From contig JAWVZQ010000001.1 of the NCBI GenBank assembly GCA_033722095.1, positions 1 to 56,690 of the forward strand: 56,690 nucleotides of DNA, written 5' to 3'. The notes beneath the pieces were generated by a model. It did not search any database, had not been told where the DNA came from, and saw only the letters and a program-made list of their open reading frames with translations. Below, in pieces: positions 24,894 to 53,080 of this stretch. The position numbers were made by a program, and so were the translations under genes. Origin of the DNA: Wenzhouxiangellaceae bacterium (lineage in GTDB: Bacteria; Pseudomonadota; Gammaproteobacteria; Xanthomonadales; Wenzhouxiangellaceae). Position 1 is the stretch's first letter, and each line of letters starts with the position of its first letter.

Positions 24894-24923
24894 GACGCCG
24901 GCCGGCCCGGCCGGTCCGGCGTC
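24894..24923. terminator. GC-rich hairpin between convergent genes
   Basis: gacgccgg...ccggcgtc stem with inner ccggc/gccgg pairing; no U-tract. Confidence 0.35.
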
Positions 24924-26007: not shown

Positions 26008-26072
26008 GCCACTAGGATAGCGCGAAGCCGGCGCTGCGGGCGCGCGCCGCCGGGCGGCGCGCGACACGACGA

Positions 26073-28379
26073 TCAGAGGGCGGGATCCTCGAAGTCGTCG
26101 GTAAACACCATGTCCGGAGAAATGCGCCCGATGACGAGAATGGCGTTGTCTTCCTTGGCCACCACGTAGACGTGTCGGTCGTCGCCGCTGGCGACGGCGT
26201 CGGTCGGGCCGGCCATGGTAAGAATTTCGCCCTGGTCATCGAACAGCGTCTGGCGCAGGCGCAACGAGCCGACCGGAAGGCCGTCTGCGTTGCCGGGCTG
26301 CATGCGCTCGAAGATCGACAGGCTGTGGTCGCCGAATCCGGCCACGAAGACGCCGAGTCCGTCGGGCGCCAGCGCCAGGCCCTGCACGCCCTGGAGGCCC
26401 GGCACGCCGCCGGCGACATCGTGGGTGACCACGGTCCGCTGGGTCAGCGTCCCGTCGCCGGCGCGATCGAACAGCACCACGGCGTTCTCGTCCTCGCTGG
26501 ATACGTAGAGGTGCTCACCGGCGTCGCTGATCTCGATGGCATAGGCGCCGTTCAGGGCCGTGATGCCGTCGATGCCGTCACGATAGGCTGTCTGGTAGCT
26601 GAGTGCGCCGAACGACGCCGAGGTGTCATCGGTATCGCGGCCGAACACCTGCACGGCGTCCCCGAACCGCGAAGCGACGTAGAGCTGGTCTCCGGCCGGC
26701 GAGAGCGCGAGCCCGGCCGGTCGGCCCATGGCCTCCACCGTTCCGCCTGCATCGTCGGGGTCGTCGACGTCGCTGAACTCGGCCTCGATGAACTGCAGCG
26801 CGCCCGATGATCCGTCGCGCTGGAATACCGCGACGGCATTGTCGTCGGCGCCGGCGGCGTAGAGATGGGCACCGTCCTCGCTGAGCAGCAGGCTGCGGAC
26901 GCCGGTCAGGCCGGCGTTCGGCTCGGCTGCGCCGGTGCTCGTCGCGCCCTGGGCCTGGTTCTGCAGGAAGGTCAACGAGCCGTCGCCGGGATTTCTCGAG
27001 AGCACGACGATGGCGTCCGAGCGCTCTGCCGCGACGTAGACGTGCAACCCGTCGGCGCTGATCGCGATGTCGATCGGACCTTCCATCAGGGCCGTCTCGA
27101 AGCCGGGGGAATTGATGTCGTAGACCGAGCGGAACGTCAGCCGCCCGCTCGAGGAGGCCCGGTCGAACCGCACCAGGGCATTCAGCGAGTCGCTGGCCAC
27201 GTAGGCGTGCGCGCCGTCCGGAGAAAGCGCCAGGGCCGTGGGGTCGGCCATGCCGACGACGCCGTCCTCGCCGTCGACGACGGCCTGCTCGGGGTTCGCT
27301 GCAGGCCGGAAGCGCGGATCGATGATCACGCCCAGCGCCTCGGTGTCGTCGAGCAGCAGATTGAACGGCGTGGCGAAACGCACCAGGAAGCTCTTCGGCG
27401 CGCTGGTCCCCGGCGACGGCAGCAGCGTGACGGGAATCTCCGCCGAGAGGTCGCCGGCGGCGATGGTCACCGTACCGCTTGCGTCCACGTAGTCGACGCC
27501 CGGCATCGCGTTCAGCGGTGCCAGGGACCAGTTCACGCGGGCCTCGAAGTCGCTGTTCTTCGACAAGCGCGGCTCGAAGCGCAGGATGGCCGTCTGCCCG
27601 TCGGGAGGCTCCAGCGCGGCCGCGTCGGAGGCCAGCAGCGTCGGGACGTCATCGTCGTCGATGATCGTCAGCTGCGCGGCGGGGCGCGACGGCACGCCGC
27701 CCAGGATTCCGTTGACGTCGAGCTGGGCGGTCTCGGTACCCTCGATGATGGTGTCGCCGCAGACGAGCACCGTGACGGTCCCGCTCTGCTGGCCCTGCGG
27801 AATCACGAGCGTGGCCGAATCGGAAACGTAGTCGACGCCCGGGCCGCATGAACCGGCCCCCACGGCCGTGCCATCGCTCAGCGACCAGAAGATCTCGACG
27901 TCGCGATCGGCGGTGGTGTTCATGTCGAACGTGAACGTGGCCGCCGTGGTGCCGGCGTTGCCCTCGAAGACCTCGACGTCGTTGAACGACACGGCAGGCC
28001 CGGTCCCGAGGTTCTGCGGATCGAGGTCGAGCCGGACGGCCCGGCCCTCGAGGCCGACCGTCGTCTCACCGGCCAGTTCGTCGGCGATGTAGACCACGAC
28101 CGGATCACCGGGGCGCGCCCGGCCCGGCGGACGCGGTTCGACCGAGTCCATCGGGATCCTGAGCGCGTACTGATCGCCGAGCCGCCCGCTGCTGCCCAGT
28201 TCGTAGCGCGCGATGACTTCCCCGGTGGCGAGCAGGCGGGCCTCGATGACCTGCCCGTCGGCAACCGGATTGCCGAACAGCGTGGCGTTGCCGTAGAGAA
28301 CGTGGTCCGGCGCGTCGATCCTGGCGTCGACGCCACCCGCGACCATGAAGCCCACCAGTGCCAGTGCGATTCGTTTCAT
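26073..28379 (-). CDS. Secreted protein: N-terminal beta-sandwich, two Calx-beta domains, lactonase-like beta-propeller, C-terminal VFTDDFE motif
   Basis: Signal peptide MKRIALALVGFMVAGGVDA; EGNAGTT..TF...DGTA...GVDY Calx-beta patterns twice; repeated SPDG.H.YVA....VF.R blades. Confidence 0.85.
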   Translation of the reverse strand: MKRIALALVGFMVAGGVDARIDAPDHVLYGNATLFGNPVADGQVIEARLLATGEVIARYELGSSGRLGDQYALRIPMDSVEPRPPGRARPGDPVVVYIADELAGETTVGLEGRAVRLDLDPQNLGTGPAVSFNDVEVFEGNAGTTAATFTFDMNTTADRDVEIFWSLSDGTAVGAGSCGPGVDYVSDSATLVIPQGQQSGTVTVLVCGDTIIEGTETAQLDVNGILGGVPSRPAAQLTIIDDDDVPTLLASDAAALEPPDGQTAILRFEPRLSKNSDFEARVNWSLAPLNAMPGVDYVDASGTVTIAAGDLSAEIPVTLLPSPGTSAPKSFLVRFATPFNLLLDDTEALGVIIDPRFRPAANPEQAVVDGEDGVVGMADPTALALSPDGAHAYVASDSLNALVRFDRASSSGRLTFRSVYDINSPGFETALMEGPIDIAISADGLHVYVAAERSDAIVVLSRNPGDGSLTFLQNQAQGATSTGAAEPNAGLTGVRSLLLSEDGAHLYAAGADDNAVAVFQRDGSSGALQFIEAEFSDVDDPDDAGGTVEAMGRPAGLALSPAGDQLYVASRFGDAVQVFGRDTDDTSASFGALSYQTAYRDGIDGITALNGAYAIEISDAGEHLYVSSEDENAVVLFDRAGDGTLTQRTVVTHDVAGGVPGLQGVQGLALAPDGLGVFVAGFGDHSLSIFERMQPGNADGLPVGSLRLRQTLFDDQGEILTMAGPTDAVASGDDRHVYVVAKEDNAILVIGRISPDMVFTDDFEDPAL

Positions 28380-28381: not shown

Positions 28382-31300
28382 TCACAGCCCCGAGTAAGCG
28401 TAGGTCTTGAAGAAGATCAGGATGTCGTCGACGCCCTGGCCGTCACGGCTGCTTCCGTCGGGAAGCAGCTCGCCGTGGATGAACGTGTCGAGCCCGTCGT
28501 TCGGATCGTTGAGGAACGTTCCGCCCGGGATGATCATCACCCACTTGGTGTTCCACACCGAGCGACCGATCAGGCGGCTGTCGGCCGTGACCTGGGTGTC
28601 GTCGAAGGGCTCGGTCAGATGGAAGGCGCGGAAGCGTCCATATCTACGGATCTCGGAAAGCGTGCCCGACAGGGTGTCGCCGGCAGGGAACCAGTCGAAG
28701 CGTTCCAGGTCCTCGCTGTTGAGCGGGAACGGCACCGGCATGACCTGCTCGACGACCTGCCATTCACGCGTCCGGAAGTCGAAGGCGTCGGGCGTGCGCA
28801 GCACGTCGTTGCCGACCGGGATCAGGTAGATCCTCGGGTCGTCGGCCAGCGGCAGGTTGGCGTAGTTGCCGAACCACGATCCGACCGAGCGCACGCGCGT
28901 GGAAAACTGGCTGGAGTCGTAGCTCGAGTCGCCCGGACCCAGTTCCCAGCCGAAGAAGTTCAACCCGAAGGTCACGTTGGTCGGGAACTCGATGACCAGA
29001 CCGGGCTGCGGACCGGCCGACTCGGGCGCGAACGGCCGTGCGAAGCGGCGGAAGTTGCCGTAGTTCCAGAGGTCGTCGACGCGCATTTCCTCGAGCTTGG
29101 CGCGCCATTCCGCATCGCCTTCCGGTCCGGGCGGAATCCGGAACAGTTCCTCGCGCAGCGAGAAGCGATTGGTTTCGACCTGCGGGTTGTTGAAGCCCAT
29201 CTGGCCCTTGAGCACGTCGAAGTTCAGCCTCAACTGGGCGAGCTTGCTGGCCAGTCCCGGCGAGCCGGGCTGCGGCAGGCCACCGATGACCTGGCCGAGG
29301 CTGCGCTCGCGGACGATGTCGGTCAGGAAGGCCTGGCCGGCCTGGTCGTCGGTACCGAGCAGGTTCGTGTCGTAGTCGTAGGCCGCCGCGGCCAGGTAGG
29401 CGTAGCGTGATGCCAGGTCGAAGGCGGCGCGGTACTTCTGCAACGCGTCATTGCGGAAGATGCGGAATGCCATGTCCTGGTACCGGTATTCCTGCACGGC
29501 TGCGGCACCGTTCTTGCGGAACGACTTCAATCGCTCCATCGTCCTCAGGCCGCGGGCCAGCGTCGCCTTGTAGTCGTTGACGTGCTGCTTGATGGCCTCG
29601 GCCTTGGCGAAGACCTCGGCGCGCAGGATCGGCTCCTCGCGCAGCATCTCGTCGATCTCGCCCTTGACGTTGAACAGGTTGAGTTCGGCGTCGTTGATGG
29701 CCGTGCGGATGCCCGAAGTCTGGGCGACGTCTTCCTTCGCCGCATCGGTGATGTTGGCGCCGATGTCGAGGCCGTCGGCCACCGAGTCGATGACGGCCTT
29801 GGCCACGCTGCCGCCCGTCTTGACGGCACAGCGCGCCGTCGAGGCGATGTCGCCGCCGGCGGCCAGGCCCGCGATCAGGCTCTTGGGCACGCACTCGACC
29901 GTGTCCTCGAAGGTGGTATCGATGATCTCGGCCGCGCGCCGCGCGACGATGGCGCTGTTCTTCATGACCTGGGTGGCGACCGTCAGGTCGCGCAGCTCGT
30001 TGCGCTGCTGGATCGTCACGTTCAGGTTGTCCTCCGCGGTCTGGAACGTGGCCTCGAGCTCATCGATCTTGGCCTCGATCTCCTGGCGCAGCCGGTCGTA
30101 CTGGACCAGGCTCTTGCGCAGCGCGATGCGCGCCTGCAGCATGCTCTGCAGCAGTTGCTGCAACTGCCCGGGCGCGCGTCGCTGTCCCGTCCACGACATC
30201 GGCTTGGTGAACCAGAAGCCCAGGTCGGGCGACTCGATCGTCGTGTAGGTGACGTTGAGCAGGTTGTCGCCGGTCCCGTCCTCGGTCGTCAGGTCGCCGA
30301 GTGCACAACCGGCCGAGAACGGCTCGGAGCTGCAGGACTGCCCGTTGTCCCCGGTATGGTCCTCGCCCTGCGCGATCGGCGTCCAGTCGAAGAAGTTGAT
30401 GCCGTTGGCCGTGGGCTTGTACTGGCCGTCGAAGCTGTTGACCTTGAACGCGGCTTCGCCGCCGGCCAGGTCCAGCCCGCCGTCGAAGTCGAAGGCGGTA
30501 CCGGCAAGCGTCGGCACGTCGATGAGCATGTAGTTGTAGAGATCCGCACCGTCGTAGCCGGCCGGGTAGGTGCCGGCCGGGCCGATGTCGTCGGAATACG
30601 GCGTGCCGAAGATCTCGATGAGCTGGTTCGCGAAGTCGGTTTCCTGGGCGCGCGAGGCACGCTGCAGGTCCTCGACCTCGTTCTGGTTGCGCCGCATCTG
30701 GTTGCTGAGCTGGTTGGCGAAGTCCCAGACCTGTACGGCGTTGTTCAGCGCGCTCTCGGCGCGATCCAGCACCTGCTCGGTATTGGTCTTGTTGAAGCGA
30801 TCGAGCTGGCTCGGATCCATGTCGAAGATCACGACGTTGTCGGCCAGTCCCAGCGGGTTCAGGCCCGCGTCGGCCTCGTCGACCTGCTCCTGGATGGCCG
30901 TGTACTGGGCACTGATCTCCTCGAGTTCGGTCACGGTGCCTCGCTCGACGCGCTCGATGCCCACGTGCGTGGGGTCGGGATCCTCGGAAGGCAGGATGGC
31001 ATTGACGGTGACCCAGTCGAAGTAGGCGCCCATGCCGGCACGCGCACCCCACTCGGACAGGCCCCAGGCGCGGTCCTCGTCGGTGTCCTCGTAGCCCTGG
31101 AACTGGCCGTTCGGATCGGCGACGTACTCGTTGCGATACGTCAGATCGACGATCTCGGCGCCGGTCCGTGCCTTGGCGGCCGCGGTCTCGGCGAACTGCC
31201 GCTCGTCGAGGAAGTCGACGTTGATCGGCGCGCCGGCCACGAGGATGGACTCGATGCGCGGGTTCCAGCTGTAGAACTCCTCGTTGAGCAGGTTGTAGTA

Positions 31301-34300
31301 GATGTCCACGGCGGTCAGGTAGTGGCCCCATGCGTCGCCGTGACCCTGCGGGTAGAGGATCCGGGCATCGAACTCGTCGATGACGCCGTCGAAGTTCTGG
31401 TCGGAGATGTTGTAGCTCTGCTGGTAGGCCACCTCGCCGTCGCCGGTCGTGAAGTTCCAGAACAGCCGGTTGTAGACCGGTGCGCCGGCCACGCCGCCGA
31501 GCGTGCGGTCACGGCCGCGCAGCAGCGTCAGTTCTTCCTCGAGCACCGTGGCCATCTGGTTCTGGAAGTTGAAGATCGTCGGTGCCAGCGAGAAGTCGCC
31601 GCCGCTGGTCGTGATGCCGATCGTCGGATCCTGGGCGTCGGCGAAGGCCTCGTTGCCGAGCAGCGTGTAGAAGTCGACGATGCGCGAGGCCACGAGCAGG
31701 ATGGCGTTGTTGGCGGGTCCGTAGTCGATCGGGGGCGTACCGCGGACCGAAAGTTCCAGCGCGCGCTTCATGACCGTCGAGTAGGCCTCGATGAGGCCCA
31801 GCTGGTTGATCACGTCCGGGTCGTTCGTCAGCGGAACCGGTCCTTCGAAGCGCTCGCCGAGCTGGACCAGCATGCTGGCGTAGTTGTTGGTCGCGGCCTG
31901 GGCGAAGTCCTGGACGCGAGCCTCGAACGGGTTCAGGCGCTTGATGACGCGCTTGACCCAGCCCTCGGCCAGCTGCGGCGAGGGATCGGCCGGAGTGGCC
32001 GTGGGATCGCCGGCGAACAGGCTCCAGTCGGTGCCGTTGCCGCAGGCCGGGAGGCCACGGTAGCGCGCGACGTACCAGTTGTCGGACAGGGTCTGGATGT
32101 TCGCGCCCTCGATGCTGATCTCGACGGCACCCTGCGGGCTCGGCGTCGGGAACTGGATCCAGCCGTTGAGCTGGCCCGTGGACGGATCGGGCAGCGGCAG
32201 CGGCGGGTTGCCGTCGACGTCGGGGTGGAAGAACCACTGGAATTCCAGGGCGTCCGGATTGCCGCCGAAGTCGCCGCTGTGGCGCAGGACGAGCTGCTCG
32301 TCGAAGATGTTGTCGGGTTCGATGACCTGGATCTGGCCCTGGTAGGTCTTGACGAGGACCGGGTCGTCGGGCGGCGGCGGCGCGACGAGGCAATCGATGC
32401 GGATGACCTGCAGGCTGACCGGCAGCGGGTTCAGGCTGGGATCGTTGTTGAATGCGATGGTCATGAAGCCATTGCCCTGCGACAGGCCGGCGGTGAGTGC
32501 CGGACGCACGCCGACGGCCTGGAACGGCTCGAGAATCCCGTCGTCGTTGCGGTCCTGCACCCCGATCAGCACGTCGTCGATCGTGACCGGGCGCGAGGCG
32601 TCACAGGTGCGGATGCGGTTCTCGCCGATCGAGGAGGACTCGCAGATCCGGTTGATGCCCTGCGGGTTGCGCGACTGGCGGAACAGGGCCTCGACGGCCT
32701 GGTCCCAGTCGCAACCGTCGGCGACCGTCTGGCAGGTCCCCGTGAAGGCGTTGGCGTTGCTGCCGTCACCGTCGTTGAGCTTCTTCAGTGCCACGCGATC
32801 GTTCTTCGACAGCACGTTGAGCAGCAGGAACGGCTCGCCGATGCCGGATTCGTCGAACACGCCGGTCAGGATCAGCCGCTGGTTCAGCGGGTCGTAGGCC
32901 AGCCGCTGGCGGACCGATGCCGGCAACTTGATGGTTCCGTCGGCCGACCCGAGGATCGCCTCCGTGCCGTCGGTCTGGAGTACGCTGGCGACCGTGCCGG
33001 GAATCTGTGCCAGCGCGACCGATCTCGGATTCAGCGGGTCGATGAGCTGGGCCAGCGTGTCGGACGGCAGCGGATCGTCCTGCGTGTCCTGGATCTCGTC
33101 GAACACGACCTCGACGGCTGCCTGGTTGAAGATGTCGGGCAGACCGCGCTTCGGCGTCAGCAGCGTCTCGCCGTTGACGAGCAGCGGCACGTCGCTGGGC
33201 CAGGTGATGTCGTAGCTGACGATGATGGGGTCCATCGTGGAACCCGACCCGCCCTCGGCCTCTGGCAGGCGCGCCAGCCAGGGCACGCAGGTGCCGGAGA
33301 CGATGTCGTTGACGTCGTTGTTGTCGAGGTCGACCTGCCAGCCGGGCTGGGCGGGATAGTAGTAGCGCACGTCGCCGCTTCCGGCGGACTTGGCCCAGAG
33401 CTGGTTCTTGTAGTCCTGGAAGAACGGCGGAGGCGGCTGCTCGCCCACGGCCTGGCCGACGACGAAGGTCTGGGCGCAGCCCGGCAGCAGGCTGACGGGG
33501 TACGGCGGCGCAACGGTGGTCCCGGCCGTGCCGCTGAAGCGGAAATCGGTGAAACCGCCGCCGGTGGCTTCCACGGAGAAGACACGGAACTTCCATTCGA
33601 GGACGTTCTCGTCGAAGTACTTGATGAGCACGTAGGGATCCGACGCCGCGCCGGCGTCGCCGGCCAGCGCCGCGCCGAAGTCCGAACGCAGTGCGAACAC
33701 GGCCTCGAACGGCGTGCCCGTGCTCGACGGCGCCATGAGCGCGTGTTCGTCGTTCGGGTTGTAGCCCGGCAGGTTCCGGTCGTTCTGGGTGTAGATCCGC
33801 GCCGACGGATAGACGAGCGGGTCGAGCGGCTCCTGGCCCAGGACCTCACCGCCCTGCTCGCTGGCGATGATGATGCGGTCCGGGTCCAGCGGCCAGAACG
33901 GCGCGTATCGGACGCCCTTCTCGGGCCAGTAGACGCCCTTCGACTTCGCGTGGTACCAGGCCACCACGAGTTCGCGGCCCTGGTCCTGCGAGCGCCCCGG
34001 GTTGATGCGGTTGACCGGGATGATCGCGCCCGTCCGCGCCGAGCGGCTGTAGGCGGCGTCGGGGCCGGCCCCGTCGTAGTAGGCCAGTTCGTTGGCCACG
34101 AAGCCGGTCCGCCCGAGTTCGTCGTGGTGCGGGTCGGTGATCTTCTGGCCGATCTCGACGGCCACATCGTCGGTGAACAGCGGGGTCGAGGTCGCCGGCA
34201 GCGTGCGGACGATCTCGACCTCGGTGCGGTACTGCAGCGGGTCGGGCTCGGGGCCGTTGACGTAGATCAGCGTGGCCGTGCCGCTGCGCGGCGCGGTGAA

Positions 34301-42500: not shown

Positions 42501-45500
42501 AGGCTGTTGGCGTCAGCGCCGGTCGCGTAGAGGGCGTCGCCGTCGCGGGACAGCGCGGCGGCGCTGGCGCCCACGAGACCCGTGATCGCATCTTCGGGAT
42601 CGGTGCCGAGCACCATGCCCTCGCTGAAGGTCTCGGCGAGCGCGAGGCTGCCGTCGAGCGCATCGACGTCGAAGACCAGCACCGTGTCCAGCTCGGGGTT
42701 CGCGACCAGGAGCCGCGTGCCGTCGGGCGAGAAGCGCAGCGCCGATGCACCGGCGAGTTCGGCGAAGTCCGGCACGCCGAGCACGAAGTCGTCGACGAGT
42801 GGCGGGTTGGCCGTGCAGGCCCACATCGCGCTACCCGAGACCAGTCCGGGATCCTCGGGCGGGAAGATCGGCGGGACGTCGCTGAACAGGGCGCCGAGCG
42901 CGTCGCTGGGTCCGGCGTTGTCGAAATCGATCGTGTAGGTGATTCCCGTCCCGGCCACGACTTCGTCGAGGCCGTCGGTCTTGGTCACGCGCAGGTCCGG
43001 TACCGGTCCCAGCGTGTCGATGTCGTCGTCGGCATTGTCGGACGGGTTGAGTTCGCGCTCGATGAACCGGCTCGAGGCCTCCACGGAATAGATGAGCTGG
43101 CCGCTGGCGTTCGGATGGATCACGCCTCCGACGAGGAATTCCAGGCGACCGCCGGGGGCGATCTCGACGGGTTGCTCGCCGATCTCACGTGCCCCGCCGA
43201 GCGCGCAGAGCGAACCGCGCCGGCGTGCGAGCACGCCGATCGCACCGGGATCGGCCAGGCTGTAGAGCGGCCCGTCGAACGGAATCACGAGGCGGGTCAA
43301 CCCGGCCAGCGCCGGAATGTCGGCCGTTCCGTACTGGGCCAGCAGTTCCGGCGCGGTATCGCGCAGGCTGAACAGGTGGATGGTCTCGCTGCCCGGCGAC
43401 CCGACGTAGAGGCGCTGCTGGCGCTCGGAGTAGGCCAGCGTCGCCGGCCCGGCCAGGTCGGTGATGCCGTCGACGCCGTCCTCGATCATCTGGACGAATT
43501 CGAGCACCGGCTCCGCACCGACCGTGGCGGCCGGGACGAATTCGAATTCGGACACCGCATTGCCGCCGCCGGCGGCGACGAAGACGCGCGTGCCCACGGC
43601 CAGCACGTCGAGCGGGGAATTCAGCGGAGCCGGCGGATTCGGCGGGCCGAGCTCGAAGTTCTGGAGGATCGCGACCTGGGTCAGCAGGCCGGTCGTCGCC
43701 GAGCGCTCGAAGGCGGCCAGCGAGGCGTTCTCGTCGGCGACGGCGAGCAGGTGCCCGTCGCTCCAGGCCAGCCCCGTCACGCCGTTGAGGCCGTCGACGC
43801 CACCGATGCCCTGCACGGTCTGGCCGGCGTAGAGCAGGTTGCCGCTCGCCCCGTCGATGCGGAACACCGCGACGGCGTCGTCGAGCCGGCCGGCCGCGTA
43901 CAGGAAGACGCCGGCGGGCCCGAGCACGATTTCCGTGACGCCGCCGATGCCGTCGACGCCCGATTCCCCGTCGCGGACGCGTCCGACCTGCGTCAGCAGT
44001 CCGGATTGGGCGTCACGGGCGAAGATGACGATGGCGTCGGAAACCGAGCCGGCCGCGTACAGGAAGTTGCCGTTCTCGCTGAGCAGCAGGTCGGTGACTC
44101 CCTGCAGACCCTCGACCATGTCGCCATCGCCGATCGGACCGCCCTCGACCCACGATTCGAGCGGGGTGAGTGCGCCGGACACGGGGTCACGCAGGAAGGC
44201 CGCGACCGCGCCGCTCCCGCCGACCGCGCCGGCGGCATAGGCGAACAGGCCATCGCCGGAGACCACGATGTCGCGGATGCCGTCGAGCGGCTGGGCCTGC
44301 ATCTGAACCTGCGTCAGCACGCCTTCGACGGGCGTGGCGCTGCACGACCAGGTCACGTCGTACAGCGCCGCCGGGATCGCGTCGGAAACGAGCACGTCGA
44401 CGGCGAAGGACGGACCGACGTTGTCCACGGTCACGAGGTACTCCACGGGTTCGCCGGGCGTGGCGACGGTCATGCCGTCGTCGACATCGACCACGAGATC
44501 GACGCTCGGCGAGAGAACCGTATCGTCGTCGGTCGCCGTGTTGTTGGCGATGACCGGATCCTGGAGTCCCGCCCCGGTCACGGTCGCCGTGTTGACGAGG
44601 CGACCGGTCGCATCCTCGCGGACCGTGGCGTTGGCCACGTAGGTGACGCGTGCGCCGGCCTCGAGCGAGACCGCGCTGTCGTTGATCGAGCCGGTGCCCG
44701 ACTGCGTGCACGCACCGGCCGGGTTGGCGCTCGGCGTACAGGTCCAGCTGATGGCCGAGAACGTGTCGGGGAAATCGTCGACGACGGTGATCTGGCCCAC
44801 GTCGCTGGGACCGAGGTTCTCGACGATGATCCGGTAGGTCACGACGGACCCCGGCGCCACGCCTCCGAGCCCGTCGAACAGTGCAGCCGAGAACGACAGC
44901 GCTCCGGGATCGGTCACGAGATCGCGCTGGAAGGTCGCCAGCGCGTCGTCGATGCTGCCCACCGCGTAGAGCTGTTCCCCGTCCGGCGAAGGCAGCACGT
45001 CGGCAACACCGTCCAGGCCCTGGACCTGCCCGCCCGTCAGCGGCGCCGCATCACCGTTGGCAACGATGCCGGCGAACTCCAGCGACGCGTCGCCGAGTAC
45101 GTCGAAGCGCACGACGGCATCGCTGGCAGCGCCGGCGACGTAGACCTGGGCCGCGTCGGAAGACAGGCGCATCGCCGCGGCACCGGCCAGACCCGTGGTA
45201 CCGGCCGTGCCGTCCTGCTTGAAGTCGATGAAGGTCAGCGCCCCGGTGCCGGGATCGCGCGAGAAACGCGCCAGCGTTCCGGTGGTGGCGCCCAATACGT
45301 AGACATGCATCCCGTCGGGGGCGACGAGCACGTCGATCGCGCCGGCCAGACCGGCCACGCCGCCGACGGTATCGACCTCGCTGTCGACGTAGCTCAGCGA
45401 TCCGAATGCGGAGCTGCCCGGATTGGGATTGCGCTGGAAGACGACGACGCTGTTGTCGATGCTCGAGACGGCGTAGACATGCAGCCCGTCGGGAGAGACG

Positions 45501-48500
45501 GTCAGCGCCACCGGCTCGGTCAGGTTCGTCACGCCGCCGACGGCGTTCTGGACGCTGGCGACGAATTCGAGGTCGCCATAGGTCGAGGCCATGGGATCGG
45601 CTTCGCGGCGGAAGACCGCGATCGAATTGTCGAGCCTGCCGGCGACGTAGACGTGCTCGTCGTCGGGGGACACCGCGAGCGCTTCGGCGCCGCCGATGCC
45701 GTTGACGCCGAGCGTGCCGTTCTGCTCGAGCTCGACGAATGCCAGTGCGCCCGTCGTCGGCACGCGGTCGAAGGCCACGAGCGTGTTGCTCGCCGCGCCC
45801 GTCGCGTAGAGGTGTGCGCGATCGACCGAAAGCGCCAGGTCGCTGACGTCGGTCAGACCCGACACGCCGGCCTCGCCGTTGCGCATCACGCCCGTGAAGT
45901 TCAACTCGCCGTGCTCGGGACCACCCGGGTCCACGGTGCGGCGGAACACGCCGATCGCGTCGTCCTCGCGGCCGGCCGTGTAGACGGCCCGGGCATCGCC
46001 GGCCAGGGCCGTTGCGCCGTCCAGGCCGTCGTACTCGGCCAGGCCGTCGTCCTTCGAGATCCTGAGATCGGCGACGACCTCGACCTGGTCGGTGTCGGTC
46101 TGCGAATCGTTCGTGTCGTTGATGTCGACGCCCGGATCGGCCGAAACGGTCGCCGTGTTCTGCAGTTCGCCATCGGTGGTCGCGGCCACCGTGGCCGTGA
46201 CCTGGAATACCACGCTGCCGCCCGCGGCGATGTCGACGGCCACGCCGTTCAGTTCGCCGGTGTCGGAAGCCGGGCAGCTCGAATCGCTGTTTCTCCGGAA
46301 TCGCGAAACGGCGGCATCCGCCGAGCCGGCCACGTAGACCTGGCCCAGCGCATCGTCGATGGCCACGGCGCTGGCACCGCCCAGGCCCGTCACGAAGCTG
46401 CTCTCGTTGCTGAGCACCCCGCCGAAGTCCAGGCTGCCGTCGGCCGCATCGCGCAGGTACCAGGAGACCGCGCCGCTGGTCTGCGCGACTGCGTAGACAT
46501 GGGCGCCGTCCTTGCTGACCACGAGGTCGCGCGGGCCCAGCAGGCCGCTGACTCCGTTCACGCCCTGCACGATCTCCTCGACGACCGAAAGGACGCCGTA
46601 GGTGCCGCTGGCGGGGTCCGCGTCCCGGTCAAGGACGACGATGCGGTCGGCGCTGCCTGCGCTCACATAGAGCGTGGTGCCCATGTCGAGCACGGTGTCC
46701 ATGGCCGCGCCGCCGGCGCCGGACAGGTCGACGCCGAGGTCGGCATCGAACTGGGAACGCACCCACGACAGGTACCCGTCGGCGGCCACGTCGAAGGTCG
46801 CCACGGCACGATCCGTGGCCGAAACGGCATAGAGGTGCGCGCCGTCGGGGCTGGCCACGAGGCGGACCACGCCGTCCAGCCCGGTGACCGTGCCGCCGGC
46901 GTCGTCGGGATCGTCGATGCCGTCGCGCTCGGACTCGAGGAAACCCAGTTCCCCGGAAGCCGCGTTACGCGAGAACACGGCGATCGCGTCGTCGTTGCTG
47001 CCGGCCACGTAGAGCACGTCGCCCGAGGCGCCGAGCGCCACGTGCGAGGCCTGGTTCAGCCCCGTCATGCCGGATTGGGATTGGACGAGGACCAGCTCGA
47101 GCGCGCCGGCGTTATCGGTCAGTTCGAAGACGGTGACCGCGTCGTCGATCTGGCTGGCCACGTAGAGGAACCGGCCATCCGGGCTGGCCACCACCGAGCG
47201 CGCACCGGCCAGCAGGTCGGCCGTTCCGCCGGTCAGGGCATCGCCGTCGGTGATCTTCATCAGGTGGGTCAGCGCGCCGTCGCCGGGCGCACGGCCGAAC
47301 ACGACGATCCCGTCGTCGACGACCGACGCCGCCACCAGGTAGGAGGTCAGCGGTCCGGCACCATCGGGATCGGGCACCACGGCGATCGAGGCGACGCCGT
47401 CCAGGCCCAGTTCGACCGCACCCGCGGTCGGATCCTGGACGATGCTCTCGGCGAAGGTCAGCGCACCGGAACTCGAGGCCACGCAGCTCCACGCGACGCT
47501 GCCGGGCTCGAAGTCGGGGTTGCCGTCGAACAGGTCGGTGACGGTCAGGTTGCTGGAGTCGTAGGTGACGTTGCTCGGGCCGAGATTGGTCACGCGAATC
47601 TCGTAGGTCACCGGCTGGCCGGCCACGACGGAGACCTGGTTGTTGGTCTTGGTCAGTGCGAGATCGGCCTGGGGTATCAGCTGCGTCGTATCGGTGGCGC
47701 TGACGGTGGGCCTGTCGACGCCGGGCTGGTTCGGGTCGGTGACGTTCTCGGGATAGGTGACGGTCACGGTGTTGGTCAGCGTTCCCGTCGCGTCGGGCCG
47801 GATGTCGGCCTCGATGCGGTACTGGACGAATCCGCCGACGCCGATCGTGACGGTGTCGTCGATCATGCCGCTGCCGCCTCCCGTGCAGACCGAGCCGATG
47901 CCGAGGACGAACGAGGCGATGGCGCGGTCGTCGAAGCCGGCCGCGTAGACGTTGCGCGAGTCGTGGCTGACGGCCAGCGCGTAGATGTTGTCGAGACCGT
48001 CGACGCCGTTGACGTCGTCGCGGCTGACCGCGACGGGCGCGAGCGCACCGAAGTTCGCCCCGTTGCGATTCAGGTCGCGATCGAAGACGAGAAGGCTGGA
48101 ATCGAACTGCGCCGCGACGTAGACGCGCTTGCCGTCGGGACTGACTTCGATGTCCCGGGGGCCGTTCATGAAGGTGATTGCGCCCTCGCCGTTGAACTGC
48201 TGGCGGGCATTGGTGAGCTTGCCGTAGTCGTCGTCTCCGGAGGCGCTCACGCGCCGGAAGACGCTGACCGAATCGCTGTTCTGCGAAGCCACGTAGACGT
48301 GGTCGCCGTCGCCCGGCGAGACCGTCACCGCCATGGGGCGGTCCCCGACGCGCGAAATGACGGTCTGCAGGAACGACAGGTTGCCGAACTGGTCGGGATC
48401 CACGCTCTCGTTGTCGCGCCGCATGGCGACGAGCGCGTCGTCGATGTCGGCGACGGCGTAGACCTGCGCGCCGTCCGGGCTGACGGCGACGTCACGCACG

Positions 48501-51500
48501 CCGGTCAGGCCATTGAAGCCCACGCCGTTCTGGGCGCGGCCGATCCACGTCAGCGTCAGGTCCGATTCTCGCCGGAAGACCGCCACCGAGGCATCGAAAC
48601 CACCGGCCACGTAGAGGTTCTTCGACTGTGCGTCCATGGCCATGCCGCGTGCGCCGGCCAGGCCCTCGACGCCGTCGACGCCGTCGATCAGCGAATGGAG
48701 GAACTCGAGACTGCCGTCGGCCAGGCGCTTGAATACGGCGACCGAATTGCCGTCCTCGCTGGAAACGAAGACGCTGCTGCCGTCGGGACTGACGAGCACG
48801 TACTCCGGTGCGCTCATGCCGGCGATGACCCCGCCGGGCACCGCATCGCCCTCGGTCCAGTCGGCGACGAACTCGAGATGCGTACCGGCCGTTGCTTCGG
48901 TGAGTCCGGCATCGGCATTGCGCTGGAACAGGCTCACCGAGCCCTGCGAGAGGCTGACCGCGTAGACGTGCTGGCCGTCGGGGCTGACCGCCACGTCGGT
49001 GGGCGACTCGAGGTCGCCGACGCCGGGATCGCTGTCCCGGTCGGTCTCGATGAGGGCGAACAGCGGGTCGGGGGCACGCCGCGTGTAGATCGCCAGGGCC
49101 GGCACGGCTCCCCCCTCGGACGTCGAGACCAGCACGTGGCGCCCGTCGCTGGTGACCAGGACGTCGACGGGCGCGGCGAGCGTGCATTCGTCGATGCACT
49201 GCGGCGGCGTCGCCGAATCGAAGCTGCGCGTCAGCACCGACTTCTCGCTGAGCGTTCCGGAGACGATGTCGCGACGGAACCGCGTCAGCGTGTCGTTCGA
49301 GGCGCCGACGGCAAGCAGGTGCTCTCCGTCCGGGGCCAGCGTCGATGAGGTGATTCCCGGAACGGCGTAGACGGCCAGCTGGAACGGGTCCGGGACCCCG
49401 TCGGCATTCGTGTCGCCGTAGCGAACGAGGACGACGTTCTCGCTACCGGCGGCGCTGACGTAGAGATCGTCGGTCGCCGCGAAGACGTCGAGGTCCGATA
49501 TGCCGGCGTGATCGGCGGATGTCAGCGTGTCGATCAGCGTCAGACGACCGATCGGGTCGCCCATGGAATCGTCGTCGTTGATCGAGAACACCGCGAGGCC
49601 CTGGCCCGAGCCGGAGCCGGCGAACAGCAGCCCGTCGGCGGCGTCCAGTGCCAGCGCCGAGGGATCGGCGGGCACGCCGCTCGTCTGGGTCTCGACGAAC
49701 GTCGCCAGGCCGGTCGCGTCATTGCGCGCATAGACCGAGACGGCGCCGGCGTCGCCGGCGACAAACAGGTTGTCGGCCGTCACGACGAGGGAACGCGGAT
49801 CGGCGGGAATCCCCTCCGTCGCCGATCCGGCGAACGAGAGCTGGCCGAAGTCGCTGGCCGTGGGGCTGGTCTGGCGACTGAACACGGCGATGGCGTTCTG
49901 CGAGTCGCTCATCGGGTCGGCCTTCGAGAGCACGTAGACGTGGCGCCCGTCGGGGCTGATCGCGAGGTCGACGGGGCCTTCCATGTTCTCGACGACAGGA
50001 CCGGCGTCGCCGGAGTCGTCGACACCGTTGGTCTCCCGGTCGGCGATCTCGTTCATCGCCCCGAAATTCAACCCGGGGACGTTGTTGCGCAGGTAGGGCT
50101 GGAGGCTGTCGAGTTCGGGTATCAACTGGTAGACGTGCAGGCCGTCGGCACTGGCCACGATGGCGCCACCGGGCGTACCCGTGGGACCGACGGCATCGAA
50201 TTCCTCGAGGTCGCCGGGGATCGGCGTGATGGCCTCGCAGGCCCAGGTGACGTTCTCGAGTTCCGGAGGAAACTCGTCGACGACGCGTGCCCCGAAGACC
50301 GGATCGCCCTCGACGTTCTGGACCGTGATCGTGTACTGGTGCGAACGACCCGGCACGGCCTGCATCAGACCGTCGGTCTTCGTGACCGAAAGTTCGGCCG
50401 ACGCCGTCAGGCTCGACTCGATGGAATCGGACGCCATCCCGCCCGGGGCGTTCACGGTGACCTCGTTGAGGACCGTCGGCGCCGGCGTTGCCGTGGTCAG
50501 CACTTCGACCCTGAAGCGGAGTTCGCCTCCGACGTCGATATCGACCGTCGCGGCGAGCGCGCCCGTGCCCGATTCGCAGGTACTGCCCCCGTTCGGATCC
50601 TGCTGCACGGTGCAGGTCCAGGTCGCCGGAGTCGTGGCGTTGTCGCGGTCGAGACTCGCGTCGTTGAGCGGATCGCTGACCATGGCGCCGGCCGCGAAGC
50701 TGGGACCGAGGTTGGCGACGTCGATGATGTAGGTCAGCAGGAACCGGCCGCCGCCGGCATCGGCAATGGCGATGAGATCCTTGGAGACCTGCAGCAGCGA
50801 ATCCTCGACCATGAGCGTGTCGTCGCTGGCGTCGTTGTTCGTCGTATCGGTCTCTTCGATGCCGGCCGGCAGCATCGCCGAGGCCGCATTCGTCAGCGTG
50901 CCCGTCGAGCGCCGGTCGAGATCGCCGGTGAGCGTGAATTCCACGCGGCCCTGGCCCGGCAGGTCGACGAGGTGATCGCTGAGCGAAACGACGCCTTGGA
51001 GCGTCGTCGGGCTGTTGGTGCCGCAACTGGAGGTGCCCGAGTTGCAGCACGCGCCGCCGAAGGCACGGCATTGCCACTCGACGCTGGTTTGGACGAAGCC
51101 GGCCGACAAGGCGGGATACAGCGGGACCGTGTCGCTGACCCTGACGCCGTTGGCCGCCTGGATGCCGTCGTTGAGGACGGTCACGGTGTAGCTGTGCGAC
51201 TGACCGGGCGTGGCCGCGGTCACGCCATCGGTCTTGGTCACCACGAGGTCGGTCGAGATCTCGACGTCGATGGTCGCGGGGTCCGAGTTCCCCGTCATCG
51301 GGTTCAGTTCGGTGACGGGATCGGCGGAATCGACCTGGACCGAAGCCTCGTTGACGATCTGGGAGCCGTTCTCGACGCCGCCCGAAAGGCTGACGAACAG
51401 CAGCACTTCGGTCGAACTTCCCGACGAAAGGCGCAGCGAGCCGGCCGGCGAGGTCGAGGTCAGGTCGCCGCGGTGTTCGACGATCTCGACCGGGCAGCCC

Positions 51501-53080
51501 ATGACGTCGGGCGTGAGCGTGCTGTCGTTGACGCCCTCGTCGGAGGGGCAGATCAGGAAGCACGGTGCCGCCGAATCGGCCGTGCAGCGCGCCTCGCCGG
51601 GATCGCCGAGAAGTTCGCCCGGGACGTCGTCGATGAGCCTCGCCCCGCCCTCGCCCGGGCCGTTGCCGACGTCGCTGGGGCCGAGGTTGGTGACCGTGAT
51701 GGTGTACATGAACGCGTCGCCGGGATTGACCGTCGTCGCACTCGACACCTTGGTGACCTGCAGATCGGCGCGGCGATCGATGCTCAGCGACAGCGTGCCC
51801 GCATCGTTCATCGCATCGTCCTCCACGTCGCCGCTGGCGGGGGACGGCGTGGCCGTGATCTCGAGCGGATCGAGCAGGGAGCCGCTGTCGTAGTCGACCT
51901 GCGTCAGTGCGATGGCCACCGAACCCGAAGCCGCAACGTCGAGATCGACGGTGATGTCTTCGCCGGCGGCCAGGTCGCCGCCGGCCGGCGAGCAGGTCGC
52001 ACCCATGGGGCAGTCCCAGCGCGCGCTCTCGACCTCGACGGGCAGCGCGACGACGACCGACGCCCCGATCGCGTCCGAGGGCCCGGCATTGGCGATCGTC
52101 ACCGTGGCCGTATTGCCGGTGCTGCCCGGGATGTAGCTGGTCCCCGAAGTGGTGACCGACGCCGACAGATCGACATGCGCCTCGCGCGCGACATCGGCGG
52201 TATCGGTGTTCGAGAGCGTGCCGCTGGTCGTGCCCACGTCGGCCGAGACCGCGGCCGCATTGGTCAGCGTGGCGTCGGTCAGGCTGCTCGGATAGGCAAG
52301 CGTCAGCGTGAAGTCCAGCGACCCGCCGGCAACGATGTCGAAGGTCTGGGTGTTGCCGGTCCCCAGCGATGCGGGACAGCTCGCGCCGCCCGAGCCGCTG
52401 CATGCCCAGTCGTCCACGCTCGTGCCGGCCGGCAGCGTGTCGGTCAGCGTCACGCCGGAGGCGTCGCTGGGCCCGTCGTTGGACACGACGATCGAGAACG
52501 TGCCGGTCTGGCCGGGCACGTAGACCATGGAATCGGCCGTCTTGGCGACGCCGAGGTCGCTGACGAGGTCGAGGGCACTGCCGATCGTGCAGGTATTCAT
52601 CGGACAGGAATCGGCGCCGTCGCCGCCGAACGTATCGGCATCGGTGTCCGTGACGAGCACGTCGAAGTAGAGCGGATCGACCGTCAGCGACGAGGCGTAA
52701 TCGACGCTCAGCGTGAACTCGATGAAGCCGCCGGCGGCGATATCGCTGTTGTTCGAGGCGAGGTTGCCGCCGTTCGTCGTGGTGCTGCAGCTCGTTGCCA
52801 TGCCGCCGTCATCGGCGCAGCTGACGGCCTGCAGGGTCACGCCGGCGGGGAAATTCGTGTCGATGTCGACGTTGGCGGCATCGGTGGTGCCGGTGTTGTC
52901 GATCCGGATCGTGTAGGTGATGCCCGTCTCGCCGGGCGTGTACTGGGCGGGCGCCGTGAAGTCCGTGACCAGGTCGACGGTGGCGGCGGCATGGGCCGGG
53001 AGCAGGAGCAGCAGGATTGCCGTCCAGCGTGTAAGGCGGCAGGCCCGGACGGCCCGTGCGAGAGGATTCGTCGAGTTCAA
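39506..53080 (-). CDS. Giant (4524 aa) surface protein/adhesin: tandem DUF11 (conserved repeat) Ig-like domains with inserted lactonase-like beta-propellers
   Basis: TTG start with AAAGGGAG RBS; signal peptide; many DL.VTK...PG...YTI.V.N.GPSDA repeats; many SPDG.HVY blades; MFSDGFE motif near the C-terminus. Confidence 0.9.
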   Translation of the reverse strand: MNSTNPLARAVRACRLTRWTAILLLLLPAHAAATVDLVTDFTAPAQYTPGETGITYTIRIDNTGTTDAANVDIDTNFPAGVTLQAVSCADDGGMATSCSTTTNGGNLASNNSDIAAGGFIEFTLSVDYASSLTVDPLYFDVLVTDTDADTFGGDGADSCPMNTCTIGSALDLVSDLGVAKTADSMVYVPGQTGTFSIVVSNDGPSDASGVTLTDTLPAGTSVDDWACSGSGGASCPASLGTGNTQTFDIVAGGSLDFTLTLAYPSSLTDATLTNAAAVSADVGTTSGTLSNTDTADVAREAHVDLSASVTTSGTSYIPGSTGNTATVTIANAGPSDAIGASVVVALPVEVESARWDCPMGATCSPAGGDLAAGEDITVDLDVAASGSVAIALTQVDYDSGSLLDPLEITATPSPASGDVEDDAMNDAGTLSLSIDRRADLQVTKVSSATTVNPGDAFMYTITVTNLGPSDVGNGPGEGGARLIDDVPGELLGDPGEARCTADSAAPCFLICPSDEGVNDSTLTPDVMGCPVEIVEHRGDLTSTSPAGSLRLSSGSSTEVLLFVSLSGGVENGSQIVNEASVQVDSADPVTELNPMTGNSDPATIDVEISTDLVVTKTDGVTAATPGQSHSYTVTVLNDGIQAANGVRVSDTVPLYPALSAGFVQTSVEWQCRAFGGACCNSGTSSCGTNSPTTLQGVVSLSDHLVDLPGQGRVEFTLTGDLDRRSTGTLTNAASAMLPAGIEETDTTNNDASDDTLMVEDSLLQVSKDLIAIADAGGGRFLLTYIIDVANLGPSFAAGAMVSDPLNDASLDRDNATTPATWTCTVQQDPNGGSTCESGTGALAATVDIDVGGELRFRVEVLTTATPAPTVLNEVTVNAPGGMASDSIESSLTASAELSVTKTDGLMQAVPGRSHQYTITVQNVEGDPVFGARVVDEFPPELENVTWACEAITPIPGDLEEFDAVGPTGTPGGAIVASADGLHVYQLIPELDSLQPYLRNNVPGLNFGAMNEIADRETNGVDDSGDAGPVVENMEGPVDLAISPDGRHVYVLSKADPMSDSQNAIAVFSRQTSPTASDFGQLSFAGSATEGIPADPRSLVVTADNLFVAGDAGAVSVYARNDATGLATFVETQTSGVPADPSALALDAADGLLFAGSGSGQGLAVFSINDDDSMGDPIGRLTLIDTLTSADHAGISDLDVFAATDDLYVSAAGSENVVLVRYGDTNADGVPDPFQLAVYAVPGITSSTLAPDGEHLLAVGASNDTLTRFRRDIVSGTLSEKSVLTRSFDSATPPQCIDECTLAAPVDVLVTSDGRHVLVSTSEGGAVPALAIYTRRAPDPLFALIETDRDSDPGVGDLESPTDVAVSPDGQHVYAVSLSQGSVSLFQRNADAGLTEATAGTHLEFVADWTEGDAVPGGVIAGMSAPEYVLVSPDGSSVFVSSEDGNSVAVFKRLADGSLEFLHSLIDGVDGVEGLAGARGMAMDAQSKNLYVAGGFDASVAVFRRESDLTLTWIGRAQNGVGFNGLTGVRDVAVSPDGAQVYAVADIDDALVAMRRDNESVDPDQFGNLSFLQTVISRVGDRPMAVTVSPGDGDHVYVASQNSDSVSVFRRVSASGDDDYGKLTNARQQFNGEGAITFMNGPRDIEVSPDGKRVYVAAQFDSSLLVFDRDLNRNGANFGALAPVAVSRDDVNGVDGLDNIYALAVSHDSRNVYAAGFDDRAIASFVLGIGSVCTGGGSGMIDDTVTIGVGGFVQYRIEADIRPDATGTLTNTVTVTYPENVTDPNQPGVDRPTVSATDTTQLIPQADLALTKTNNQVSVVAGQPVTYEIRVTNLGPSNVTYDSSNLTVTDLFDGNPDFEPGSVAWSCVASSSGALTFAESIVQDPTAGAVELGLDGVASIAVVPDPDGAGPLTSYLVAASVVDDGIVVFGRAPGDGALTHLMKITDGDALTGGTADLLAGARSVVASPDGRFLYVASQIDDAVTVFELTDNAGALELVLVQSQSGMTGLNQASHVALGASGDVLYVAGSNDDAIAVFSRNAASGELGFLESERDGIDDPDDAGGTVTGLDGVVRLVASPDGAHLYAVSATDRAVATFDVAADGYLSWVRSQFDADLGVDLSGAGGAAMDTVLDMGTTLYVSAGSADRIVVLDRDADPASGTYGVLSVVEEIVQGVNGVSGLLGPRDLVVSKDGAHVYAVAQTSGAVSWYLRDAADGSLDFGGVLSNESSFVTGLGGASAVAIDDALGQVYVAGSADAAVSRFRRNSDSSCPASDTGELNGVAVDIAAGGSVVFQVTATVAATTDGELQNTATVSADPGVDINDTNDSQTDTDQVEVVADLRISKDDGLAEYDGLDGATALAGDARAVYTAGREDDAIGVFRRTVDPGGPEHGELNFTGVMRNGEAGVSGLTDVSDLALSVDRAHLYATGAASNTLVAFDRVPTTGALAFVELEQNGTLGVNGIGGAEALAVSPDDEHVYVAGRLDNSIAVFRREADPMASTYGDLEFVASVQNAVGGVTNLTEPVALTVSPDGLHVYAVSSIDNSVVVFQRNPNPGSSAFGSLSYVDSEVDTVGGVAGLAGAIDVLVAPDGMHVYVLGATTGTLARFSRDPGTGALTFIDFKQDGTAGTTGLAGAAAMRLSSDAAQVYVAGAASDAVVRFDVLGDASLEFAGIVANGDAAPLTGGQVQGLDGVADVLPSPDGEQLYAVGSIDDALATFQRDLVTDPGALSFSAALFDGLGGVAPGSVVTYRIIVENLGPSDVGQITVVDDFPDTFSAISWTCTPSANPAGACTQSGTGSINDSAVSLEAGARVTYVANATVREDATGRLVNTATVTGAGLQDPVIANNTATDDDTVLSPSVDLVVDVDDGMTVATPGEPVEYLVTVDNVGPSFAVDVLVSDAIPAALYDVTWSCSATPVEGVLTQVQMQAQPLDGIRDIVVSGDGLFAYAAGAVGGSGAVAAFLRDPVSGALTPLESWVEGGPIGDGDMVEGLQGVTDLLLSENGNFLYAAGSVSDAIVIFARDAQSGLLTQVGRVRDGESGVDGIGGVTEIVLGPAGVFLYAAGRLDDAVAVFRIDGASGNLLYAGQTVQGIGGVDGLNGVTGLAWSDGHLLAVADENASLAAFERSATTGLLTQVAILQNFELGPPNPPAPLNSPLDVLAVGTRVFVAAGGGNAVSEFEFVPAATVGAEPVLEFVQMIEDGVDGITDLAGPATLAYSERQQRLYVGSPGSETIHLFSLRDTAPELLAQYGTADIPALAGLTRLVIPFDGPLYSLADPGAIGVLARRRGSLCALGGAREIGEQPVEIAPGGRLEFLVGGVIHPNASGQLIYSVEASSRFIERELNPSDNADDDIDTLGPVPDLRVTKTDGLDEVVAGTGITYTIDFDNAGPSDALGALFSDVPPIFPPEDPGLVSGSAMWACTANPPLVDDFVLGVPDFAELAGASALRFSPDGTRLLVANPELDTVLVFDVDALDGSLALAETFSEGMVLGTDPEDAITGLVGASAAALSRDGDALYATGADANSLVVLTRDAEGTWRFEQQLQSGQNGVSGLQGPQDVILSAEERFVFVAAAASDAITVFSREASTGRLTFVERVRDGFGTITPDFDVIRGVRRLHATADGKHLYVVAPVSDSVAAFAIDPDDGTLTYLEALQAGDPGVTGMAGAWDLVAAPGDDQLYVAARDGDAITTLLADPSSGLLSFADSLSGAPIVMPESLAIDAAGSRLYASTADGIVHVLARDWIDGSLEYRGAPVSTAPMPTDLAVLDDPAGLYAVSPAAGSLARFGALPLSRCLVESGTSDAVMFATDVGAGGYGQVIYEATVHPAARGVLVNLAELLPAIGMDADSSDNTGLDSTTVIAVSDLAVTKTGPAQAVAGEVITYDITVTNAGPSDALGIVVTDTPPVPLGNIQWTCSASADSICPASGSGTPMLTATVRVGGQLDITVSGTIDPAFIGLMTNVVTVTPEPGSTDPTTGDLVDDVSTTVVARPDLVATKTTLTSPVVAGLPVQYSLVAANAGPSDAPTVHLSDMLPGPLANATWTCSGSGGATCPASGTGDPEFDASVPAGGAVEVIVTADLAPNAVGTLGNLLRVDVRTPAIDPDIGNNTSSTSDVISVVPDVALALEDPLDPFDPAGPIGMPYLATLTNTGPSSADGLLLTLNVSAPITPESPGCVNAAPEIVECQTGPLGPGQSKVFNLTLFDLPAAPATLVIDGVVVTSGDDPDLSNNVDSTTTLLRTGADIDVTLDNARTWLSPDEPVSYALTVRNIGSVDAGLVDVSLPIAAELLDAGWTCAGSDGASCPGSGTGPIAESISMPSGAAATWTLTGRVDPALDLSVPQSVLMSALAETADPASDINAANNLAVDDDPVRLVMFSDGFESPVRAHESSFEIVQRCTEITVRPAGDAGPRRLEGFDAGGEALFWLDLRRHDDHWWTRMVTLSSRSALTSGWLGPVDPSRGATVRIDDARPLLTDGERLEWMPASSLRSSPAGLRMREPGSTTRGSSFGIAGCDAASAAGGGDR

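Follow-up and report, generated by a model that had tools for sequence, protein, structure and literature searches.

A five-gene operon of exported proteins

The window (the whole 56,690-nucleotide stretch of DNA that we analysed) carries on its minus strand a run of five genes, designated g1 to g5, followed by a sixth open reading frame, g6. The 4524-aa product of g1 (39506..53080, minus strand) has a signal peptide, DUF11 Ig-like repeats and several beta-propellers, and is a lineage-specific, adhesin-like accessory. g2 (38499..39509, minus strand) encodes a 336-aa, N-terminally anchored PPIase of the parvulin type. The original prediction had named it as a PPIase, and the Rotamase families confirm this, with PF00639, PF13145 and PF13616 all matching above cut-off (PpiC domain present). 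g3 (36766..38502, minus strand) encodes a 578-aa protein with a signal peptide and is counted as a core gene on the basis of its model, fold search, alignment and synteny. g4 (28382..36754, minus strand), also a core gene, encodes a 2790-aa protein with a signal peptide, variable N-terminal beta modules and a conserved core. g5 (26073..28379/28385, minus strand) encodes a 768-770-aa protein consisting of a signal peptide, a domain that we call g5N, Calx-beta, a beta-propeller and an FTDDFE tail. The minus-strand ORFs, overlaps and gaps read from the sequence were as first described: ATGA overlaps join g1 to g2 (39506-39509) and g2 to g3 (38499-38502), and gaps of 11 nt and 2 nt separate g3 from g4 and g4 from g5. 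The five genes are thus co-directional and translationally coupled, and each of the six proteins starts with a recognisable hydrophobic leader, in agreement with the predicted N-terminal signal or anchor on every product. The GC content of the operon is close to that of the rest of the window, scans for promoters and terminators returned nothing above chance, and the named best relatives of the operon proteins belong to Wenzhouxiangellaceae and other Xanthomonadales.

The operon is flanked by a kinase gene on one side and by g6 on the other. g6 (24922..26007, minus strand) starts 65 nt downstream of g5 and encodes a 361-aa exported protein that had no family match in Pfam or NCBIfam. It was present in 19 of 21 same-genus genomes, compared with 11 of 21 for g4. 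Among seven g4-negative relatives that were fetched, six had the kinase gene beside g6 with no operon in between, and the seventh had no kinase match in its stretch. The distribution and order of g6, the kinase gene and g4 in the relatives indicate that the five genes come and go as a unit and that g6 is a mere neighbour. The sixth gene of the original prediction therefore exists as an ORF, but we rejected it as a member of the system on its genus-wide presence and its adjacency to the kinase gene in operon-free relatives; it is a resident flanking gene.

In one of the six genomes with the kinase gene beside g6 (G019, L179:10534-10713), 60 residues from the end of g5 survive between the two genes at the otherwise empty site, a scar left by deletion of the operon. 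G039 (L186-L187) has the operon in full but broken by stops or frameshifts, representing either a pseudogene or an assembly error. Elsewhere in the window, two small exported proteins without a family are encoded after a TPR gene (23950-24372 and 24456-24881); since three relatives have a single gene that is matched by both, the pair is probably a tandem duplication. At the end of the contig (56400-56690), the malic-enzyme gene seems to run into part of its own sequence in inverted orientation. A short match on the opposite strand occurs in three relatives too, and the arrangement is either a paralogue pair or an assembly artefact.

g3, g4 and g5N are conserved together across phyla

Across 61 genomes (the window's own and 60 relatives), g3 was detected in 20, the C-terminal part of g4 in 21 and both in 20. 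Ten loci from nine of these genomes all had the order g1-g2-g3-g4-g5, with g6 adjacent in four. At a wider scale, the C-terminal 1191 residues of g4 matched 1615 clusters at 50% identity, 910 of them with E<1e-30, and we estimate the family at about 1900 stored stretches in the genome collection. A cross-phylum genome scan, from which the best 80 of 708 matches were taken, yielded 78 loci labelled as Pseudomonadota, Acidobacteriota, Verrucomicrobiota/Lentisphaerae, Nitrospirota, Desulfuromonadales/Deltaproteobacteria, Omnitrophota, a spirochaete and a Kapaibacterium. The C-terminal domain of g3 was encoded upstream of g4 in 56 of the 57 loci with enough flank, and g5N was encoded downstream of g4 in 62 of 69 assessable loci, rising to 66 of 69 after profile iteration. 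The synteny that had been proposed for the 578-aa protein, the 2790-aa protein and g5N is thus present across phyla. For the PPIase, whose co-occurrence was also expected, it extends to 36 of the 78 loci (many of which have incomplete flanks) but to only 11 of 40 loci in Verrucomicrobiota. Among 301 genomes of that phylum, to which the locus L108 belongs by its record title, g4 was found in 39 with up to 7 copies per genome, and forty 20-kb stretches picked from 61 match rows contained g3 in 33 cases and g5N in 31. The conserved core of the system is g3, g4 and g5N.

In a midpoint-rooted tree covering 109 of 118 loci, the Marinobacter g4 (L095) groups with a spirochaete-labelled copy and the Xanthomonadales g4 proteins fall among Acidobacteria copies. 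From these sequences, transfer of g4 between phyla appears likely. The layout of a locus labelled Akkermansia muciniphila (L081) is nearly identical to that of an uncultured Verrucomicrobia locus (L083), and its label looks doubtful.

The C-terminal part of g4 is predicted to resemble the TcA channel

The first ~850 residues of g4 vary between homologues (SBBP, Kelch or RCC1 propellers, LamG, PA14, MAM, Ig), and residues ~900-2790 are kept across 63 distant loci. Within the kept part, residues ~900-1599 (31958..34057, minus strand) form a Pro/Gly-rich region covered in 50-63 of the 63 loci per 100-aa bin. Residues 1600-1966 (30857..31957, minus strand) form a highly conserved helical domain with a dockerin/EF-hand-like loop (Dockerin_1, E 0.0055, in 1 of 20 homologues). 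A predicted long helical hairpin with the hydrophobic tip PKSLIAGLAAGGD follows at residues 1967-2463 (29366..30856, minus strand) and resembles the TcA channel. Residues 2464-2790 (28385..29365, minus strand) form a C-terminal domain that in the model is like the TcB-binding domain of TcA, and the protein ends in a fixed motif, most often YSGN. The only Pfam or NCBIfam result for g4 itself was a sub-threshold SBBP propeller.

Residues 1600-2790 were modelled from a 40-row alignment (pLDDT 72.9, pTM 0.62). The model shows the helical domain, then the interrupted hairpin (59+90 residues down and 160 back, with a ~150-aa insert), then a C-terminal alpha/beta domain. With about 150 residues each way, the predicted hairpin would measure about 22-24 nm. 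In a Foldseek search with this model, all 21 matches at E<=0.001 were TcA chains, at 9-14% identity; rank 22 was also TcA (1.0e-3), and the first non-Tc match had an E value of 0.11. VIA aligned model residues 368-1188 to TcdA1 2008-2516, which comprise the channel and the TcB-binding domain. The geometric scores were weak: TM-scores to TcA were low (0.12-0.19), and VIA Z-scores of 8.8-10.2 (rmsd 7-21) tied with those of unrelated coiled coils (SMC, chemoreceptor). Within the whole-model alignment, the end domain matched 6l7i_A with Z 7.8 and rmsd 4.0 over 148 residues.

Profile comparison pointed to the same region. A profile of 46 family members against eight TcA-family sequences matched over the tip and return helix (E 3.8e-5, probability 71), and profile-profile values there ranged over probability 71-81 and E 1-4e-5. 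The g4 tip faces the TcA tip consensus PNVFGxAxGG, and the hydrophobic hairpin tip and the funnel domain are kept across phyla. As a lead only, ESM Atlas assigned TcA_TcB_BD to g4 (0.88). The C-terminal domain and region 1600-2059 gave no TcA profile match when searched alone. PF18276 matched none of 71 g4 end domains and none of 20 C-terminal parts, and both controls were detected. Sequence searches of the PDB with g4 were empty, profile-HMM searches returned no TcA, and residues 780-1599 had no match at all. The fold search matched residues 1600-1966 to generic helical bundles, with no TcA-shell match. TcA is defined by an alpha-helical outer shell, a neuraminidase-like lock and an entropic linker in the consulted part of PMC11435725. 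Fold searches with residues 1600-2790 and profile searches of g4 identified no TcA-type shell, neuraminidase-like lock or spring linker; these parts of TcA lack support in g4, since the rest of the protein has no profile match and PF18276 is blank. Residues ~1967-2790 are thus predicted to fold as a TcA hairpin and a TcB-binding-like funnel domain. The proposal that the 2790-aa protein is TcA-like is supported, by prediction, for the channel and the TcB-binding domain in the last ~820 residues, but not for the rest of g4, for which no TcA match was found.

g3 and g5N flank g4 and match no Pfam family

The predicted model of g3 is all-beta (pLDDT 91) and comprises an LxxGWN beta domain (~27-212), a PapD/ASH-like Ig domain (~213-333) and a C-terminal small beta-barrel (~346-572). 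The fold search gave no clear match for the first domain, Z ~9-10 (rmsd 2.5-3) to PapD/ASH Ig folds for the middle domain, and Z 7.7-8.4 to small eight-stranded barrels (PsbO, avidin, OmpW) for the last. These are common folds with 4-15% identity to g3, from which function is not transferable. No Pfam or NCBIfam family matched g3, and sequence and profile searches of the PDB were empty. In some phyla, g3 is split into two separate genes. In the barrel (window 36790-37050), histidines of the motifs NPFxHxxHPDHD and GLH are conserved and may form a metal site. Judged from its model, g3 is not like the TcB/TcC cocoon.

g5N is a ~105-aa core domain that opens g5 (window 28008-28322); it matched no Pfam family, and PDB sequence and profile searches were empty. 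It is fused to varied Ig and Ca-binding passengers and ends in host-specific tails that follow the host lineage. The Marinobacter copy, for example, matched choice-of-anchor U above cut-off and JDVT-CTERM weakly. Tails of this type are missing from g4 and g3, and g1 carries an FSDGFE motif ~130 aa before its C-terminal end. Five other ORFs of the genome (G000 contigs C23, C85, C156 and C187) end in an (I/V/L)FxDGFE tail like that of g5. The FxDGFE tail may be a lineage-specific surface-sorting signal; searched as 'IFADGFE', it gave no paper hit in the full-text search. g5 is likely a tether or adaptor. Complex prediction of g3, g5N and the g4 C-terminal domain scored 0.00 and carries no weight either way.

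The operon lacks TcB and TcC

Tc toxins are three-part, capsule-loaded weapons of insect pathogens. SpvB and RHS-core searches found no match in the locus or in its own genome (82% complete). Across the relatives, SpvB occurred in 5 of 21 g4-positive versus 18 of 40 g4-negative genomes, kin that are not independent, and it was not found in the near-complete g4 carriers G017, G027 and G035. A requirement for TcB in trans was rejected on this distribution. Several SpvB-type ORFs of 3000-4500 aa per genome, up to 7, are unlinked to g4 in G055, G029, G033 and G036; such ORFs occur in Wenzhouxiangellaceae and relatives, and the RHS core was confirmed in G055, G004 and G006.

A search with the L108 protein found a TcB-type neighbour in 1 of 118 loci, L108 itself, many of the first 78 loci being incomplete. 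There, the gene directly after the g4 homologue (L108:4996-11646) encodes SpvB, TcdB_midN, FG-GAP and RHS, which ties the g4 family to Tc biology. The corresponding gene of L099 (L099:4115-5878) encodes a signal peptide and an RHS core only, and in L145 a single ordinary RHS gene lies 3 kb away. Within the g4 tree, L108 and L099 form a nested pair of sisters. No g3 match was found in the available assembly of the L108 genome. The RHS proteins of L108 and L099 contain an LxxGWN insert resembling the first domain of g3 (44 columns, probability 89), which is a lead only. Type 3 ABC toxins are described in the consulted part of PMC12705794 as a single TcA with a fused TcBC, a layout matched by L108 alone and not by this window. 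The g4 family can thus pair with a cocoon, since L108 has the Type 3 layout, though its dominant form does not. The description of the locus as lacking TcB/TcC is true here and in nearly all others, with L108 as the exception in 118 and L099 as its RHS-only sister.

With the known A components (TcdA1 6rw6/5lki, XptA1/2, YenA1/A2, TcaA-TcaB; Types 1, 2A, 2B, 3), g4 shares the predicted tipped hairpin followed by a C-terminal TcB-binding-like domain, variable receptor-binding beta modules N-terminal to the hairpin, and the lack of a noticed immunity-like gene. Unlike them, g4 has a signal peptide, a ~150-aa hairpin insert and an unmatched shell region; its loci have obligatory g3 and g5N, TcB/TcC is absent in 117 of 118, and PF18276 is blind to it. 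The survey in PMC7861908, as far as its consulted part goes, starts from TcC genes adjoining tcA/tcB. YenTc exits by lysis, and nearly all toxins co-released with it have no signal sequences, according to the consulted part of PMC10847048. In contrast, the operon described here has signal-peptide-like starts and is flanked by the kinase gene and g6, not by a lysis cassette. Pfam scans of the core and accessory proteins found no toxin enzyme domain, and the enzyme-type matches were an M6 peptidase beside one locus and others that were weak or carbohydrate-related. The system likely works like a Tc needle yet is not a Tc toxin as defined.

Adhesion accessories are exchangeable

g1 lies upstream of g2 and g3 in 10 of 10 Xanthomonadales loci and also occurs in Acidobacteria loci. 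Its description as a giant fibre stands as regards a 4524-aa adhesin-like protein of DUF11 repeats and beta-propellers, but its fibre nature is unsupported and it is lineage-specific. g2 is likely the dedicated foldase of the operon. The giant protein and the foldase are not universal parts, since many Verrucomicrobiota loci carry MAT-like fibres instead. Fibre genes were present in 26 of the 40 Verrucomicrobiota loci, with no overlap with those that have a PPIase. We rejected this exclusivity as repeated evidence, as the tree shows about one switch.

The Verrucomicrobiota fibres have a signal peptide and a ~120-aa head, some with Collar, Gp10_C or Peptidase_S74 tips. In all three tested, the head matched Bdello_MAT_N (NF053851) with E 3e-8 to 3e-5 and 24-34 bits, below the cut-off of 60. 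A MAT fibre consists of a signal peptide, a conserved ~130-aa beta head, a trimeric fibre and an S74 or other tip in the account consulted (PMC10769870). The Verrucomicrobiota accessories resemble the Bdellovibrio fibres described there in signal peptide, ~120-aa beta head, fibre and S74 or collar tip; they differ in sitting in an operon with a TcA-like channel and in matching below the curated cut-off. Arrays of one to three MAT-like fibre genes lie inside g4 operons in L142-L177 (for example L144:1275-4513 and L152:477-3812), and may reveal the binding partner of MAT-type heads. We rejected the idea that g5N is homologous to the fibre head (probability 10). A search of the window's own genome found no MAT-like fibre, and the positive control of that search was also silent. 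The adhesion accessories are therefore exchangeable: g1 and the parvulin here, MAT-like fibres in most of these Verrucomicrobiota loci.

The proteins carry predicted export signals, and two are detected at a low level in Wenzhouxiangella sp. AB-CW3

By a simple heuristic, signal-peptide-like starts were present on 84 of 97 g4 ORFs compared to 32 of 485 internal control windows, and on 81 of 87 g5N and 44 of 47 g3 ORFs. The host genome encodes two GspD secretins. In Wenzhouxiangella sp. AB-CW3, Table 1 of PMC7691419 gives five genes of 4362, 330, 588, 2783 and 753 aa, all flagged for a signal peptide. We matched these orthologues by size, order and annotation, not sequence, and no g6-sized gene follows them. 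A search of sequencing runs listed no RNA run from a holder of the operon. In the proteome values consulted from that study, only the two largest proteins (g1 and g4) were detected, at about 0.0003-0.0009 compared to 0.005-0.014 for DnaA, and their levels were alike on killed Staphylococcus, peptone and casein, with no rise on prey (PMC7691419).

Discussion

Genes for signal-peptide proteins are linked here to a predicted TcA-like needle fold, and capsule genes are missing, which makes an undescribed puncturing surface machine likely. We give roughly even weight to the specific proposal that the operon encodes a TcA-type needle which is exported by Sec, stays tethered to the surface and, lacking a TcB/TcC cocoon, punctures target cells. 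The proteins would be exported by Sec, with folding helped by the anchored parvulin g2, and would cross the outer membrane by whatever route the host provides; two GspD secretins are present here. g4 would then form an oligomer, probably a pentamer by analogy with TcA, with the conserved residues 900-1966 as a new outer shell. g5N would bind the machine and the host-specific C-terminal tail of g5 would tie it to the surface. The target would be picked by the propeller, LamG, PA14 or MAM modules of g4 together with g1, or by MAT-like fibres elsewhere, and g3 may be an obligatory cap or assembly factor that replaces the cocoon. The helical channel would be driven into the target-cell membrane, and either the pore itself or a cargo that is not encoded as TcC would do the damage. 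We lean slightly towards eukaryotic microbes as the target, since no immunity-like gene was noticed in the operons. Against the needle stand the weak geometric scores, the negative searches for a shell and a cargo, and flat low expression on prey. Many of the carriers (Nitrospirota, Geobacteraceae, Marinobacter) are not known as predators, which also counts against it.

Most of the passengers and neighbours are modules for adhesion or Ca binding (Ig, cadherin, LamG, TSP3, Calx-beta, propellers), as expected if the TcA fold served as a rigid stalk or anchor for adhesins in a structural appendage that punctures at most the producer's own outer membrane. Such an appendage would also fit the toxin cargo that was not found and, in the consulted part of PMC7691419, the low, constitutive expression. 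We nevertheless consider it unlikely, given that phyla have the tip motif and funnel domain in common, that one lineage retains a TcB/RHS partner and that a genome can hold up to 7 copies with different fibres. Distinctly improbable, in our estimate, is a conduit through the producer's own envelope, in which the channel would span the periplasm and export the giant adhesin or fibres, or import macromolecules. The Gram-negative envelope is of the same order as the predicted channel length, and large surface proteins are nearly always in the operon; the host group also feeds on protein, as reported in the consulted part of PMC7691419. However, g4 bears variable extracellular-type binding modules, we noticed neither an ATPase nor an inner-membrane component in the operons, and the tails that g1 and g5 share with five other ORFs of the genome point to a general export route.

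A slightly smaller chance still attaches to g4 being an orphan A component that pairs with TcB-TcC-like fusions encoded elsewhere, as a remote Type 3 ABC toxin. The single TcA with fused TcBC of that type (in the consulted part of PMC12705794), the SpvB-RHS gene beside g4 in L108 and the large SpvB-RHS ORFs of several relatives would suit it. The uneven SpvB distribution and its absence from three near-complete carriers do not, and it leaves g3 and g5N unexplained, with the L108 genome itself having no g3 match. Finally, the low sequence identity to TcA and the VIA tie with SMC and chemoreceptor coils would be accounted for if the likeness were a convergence of long coiled coils and the operon an exported complex of unrelated function, a reading that we regard as very improbable.

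The surface-tethered needle may, somewhat more tentatively than for this operon alone, represent a new class of injection machine: a TcA-type needle, exported by Sec and tethered to the cell, that has a shell of its own, a g3 cap, a g5N tether and swappable adhesins or MAT-like fibres. It would serve contact attack or feeding without a TcB/TcC capsule, would occur in at least seven phyla and would escape the Pfam TcA model. A characterised system of this composition was not known to the original prediction, and none was found in full-text searches, in which no listed title or abstract describes it; most subscription papers lie outside those searches. The operon belongs to a widespread, real exported system built around a remote TcA channel, which is undescribed. 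Cultured, non-pathogenic carriers exist in Wenzhouxiangella, Marinicella and Marinobacter. The family opens the questions of whether a TcA channel can function without a BC cocoon, how the module evolved and what MAT-like fibres bind to outside Bdellovibrio. Together, the 910 clusters and about 1900 stretches suggest that free-living bacteria have put the needle module to extensive further use, exporting it by another route and combining it with other partners.
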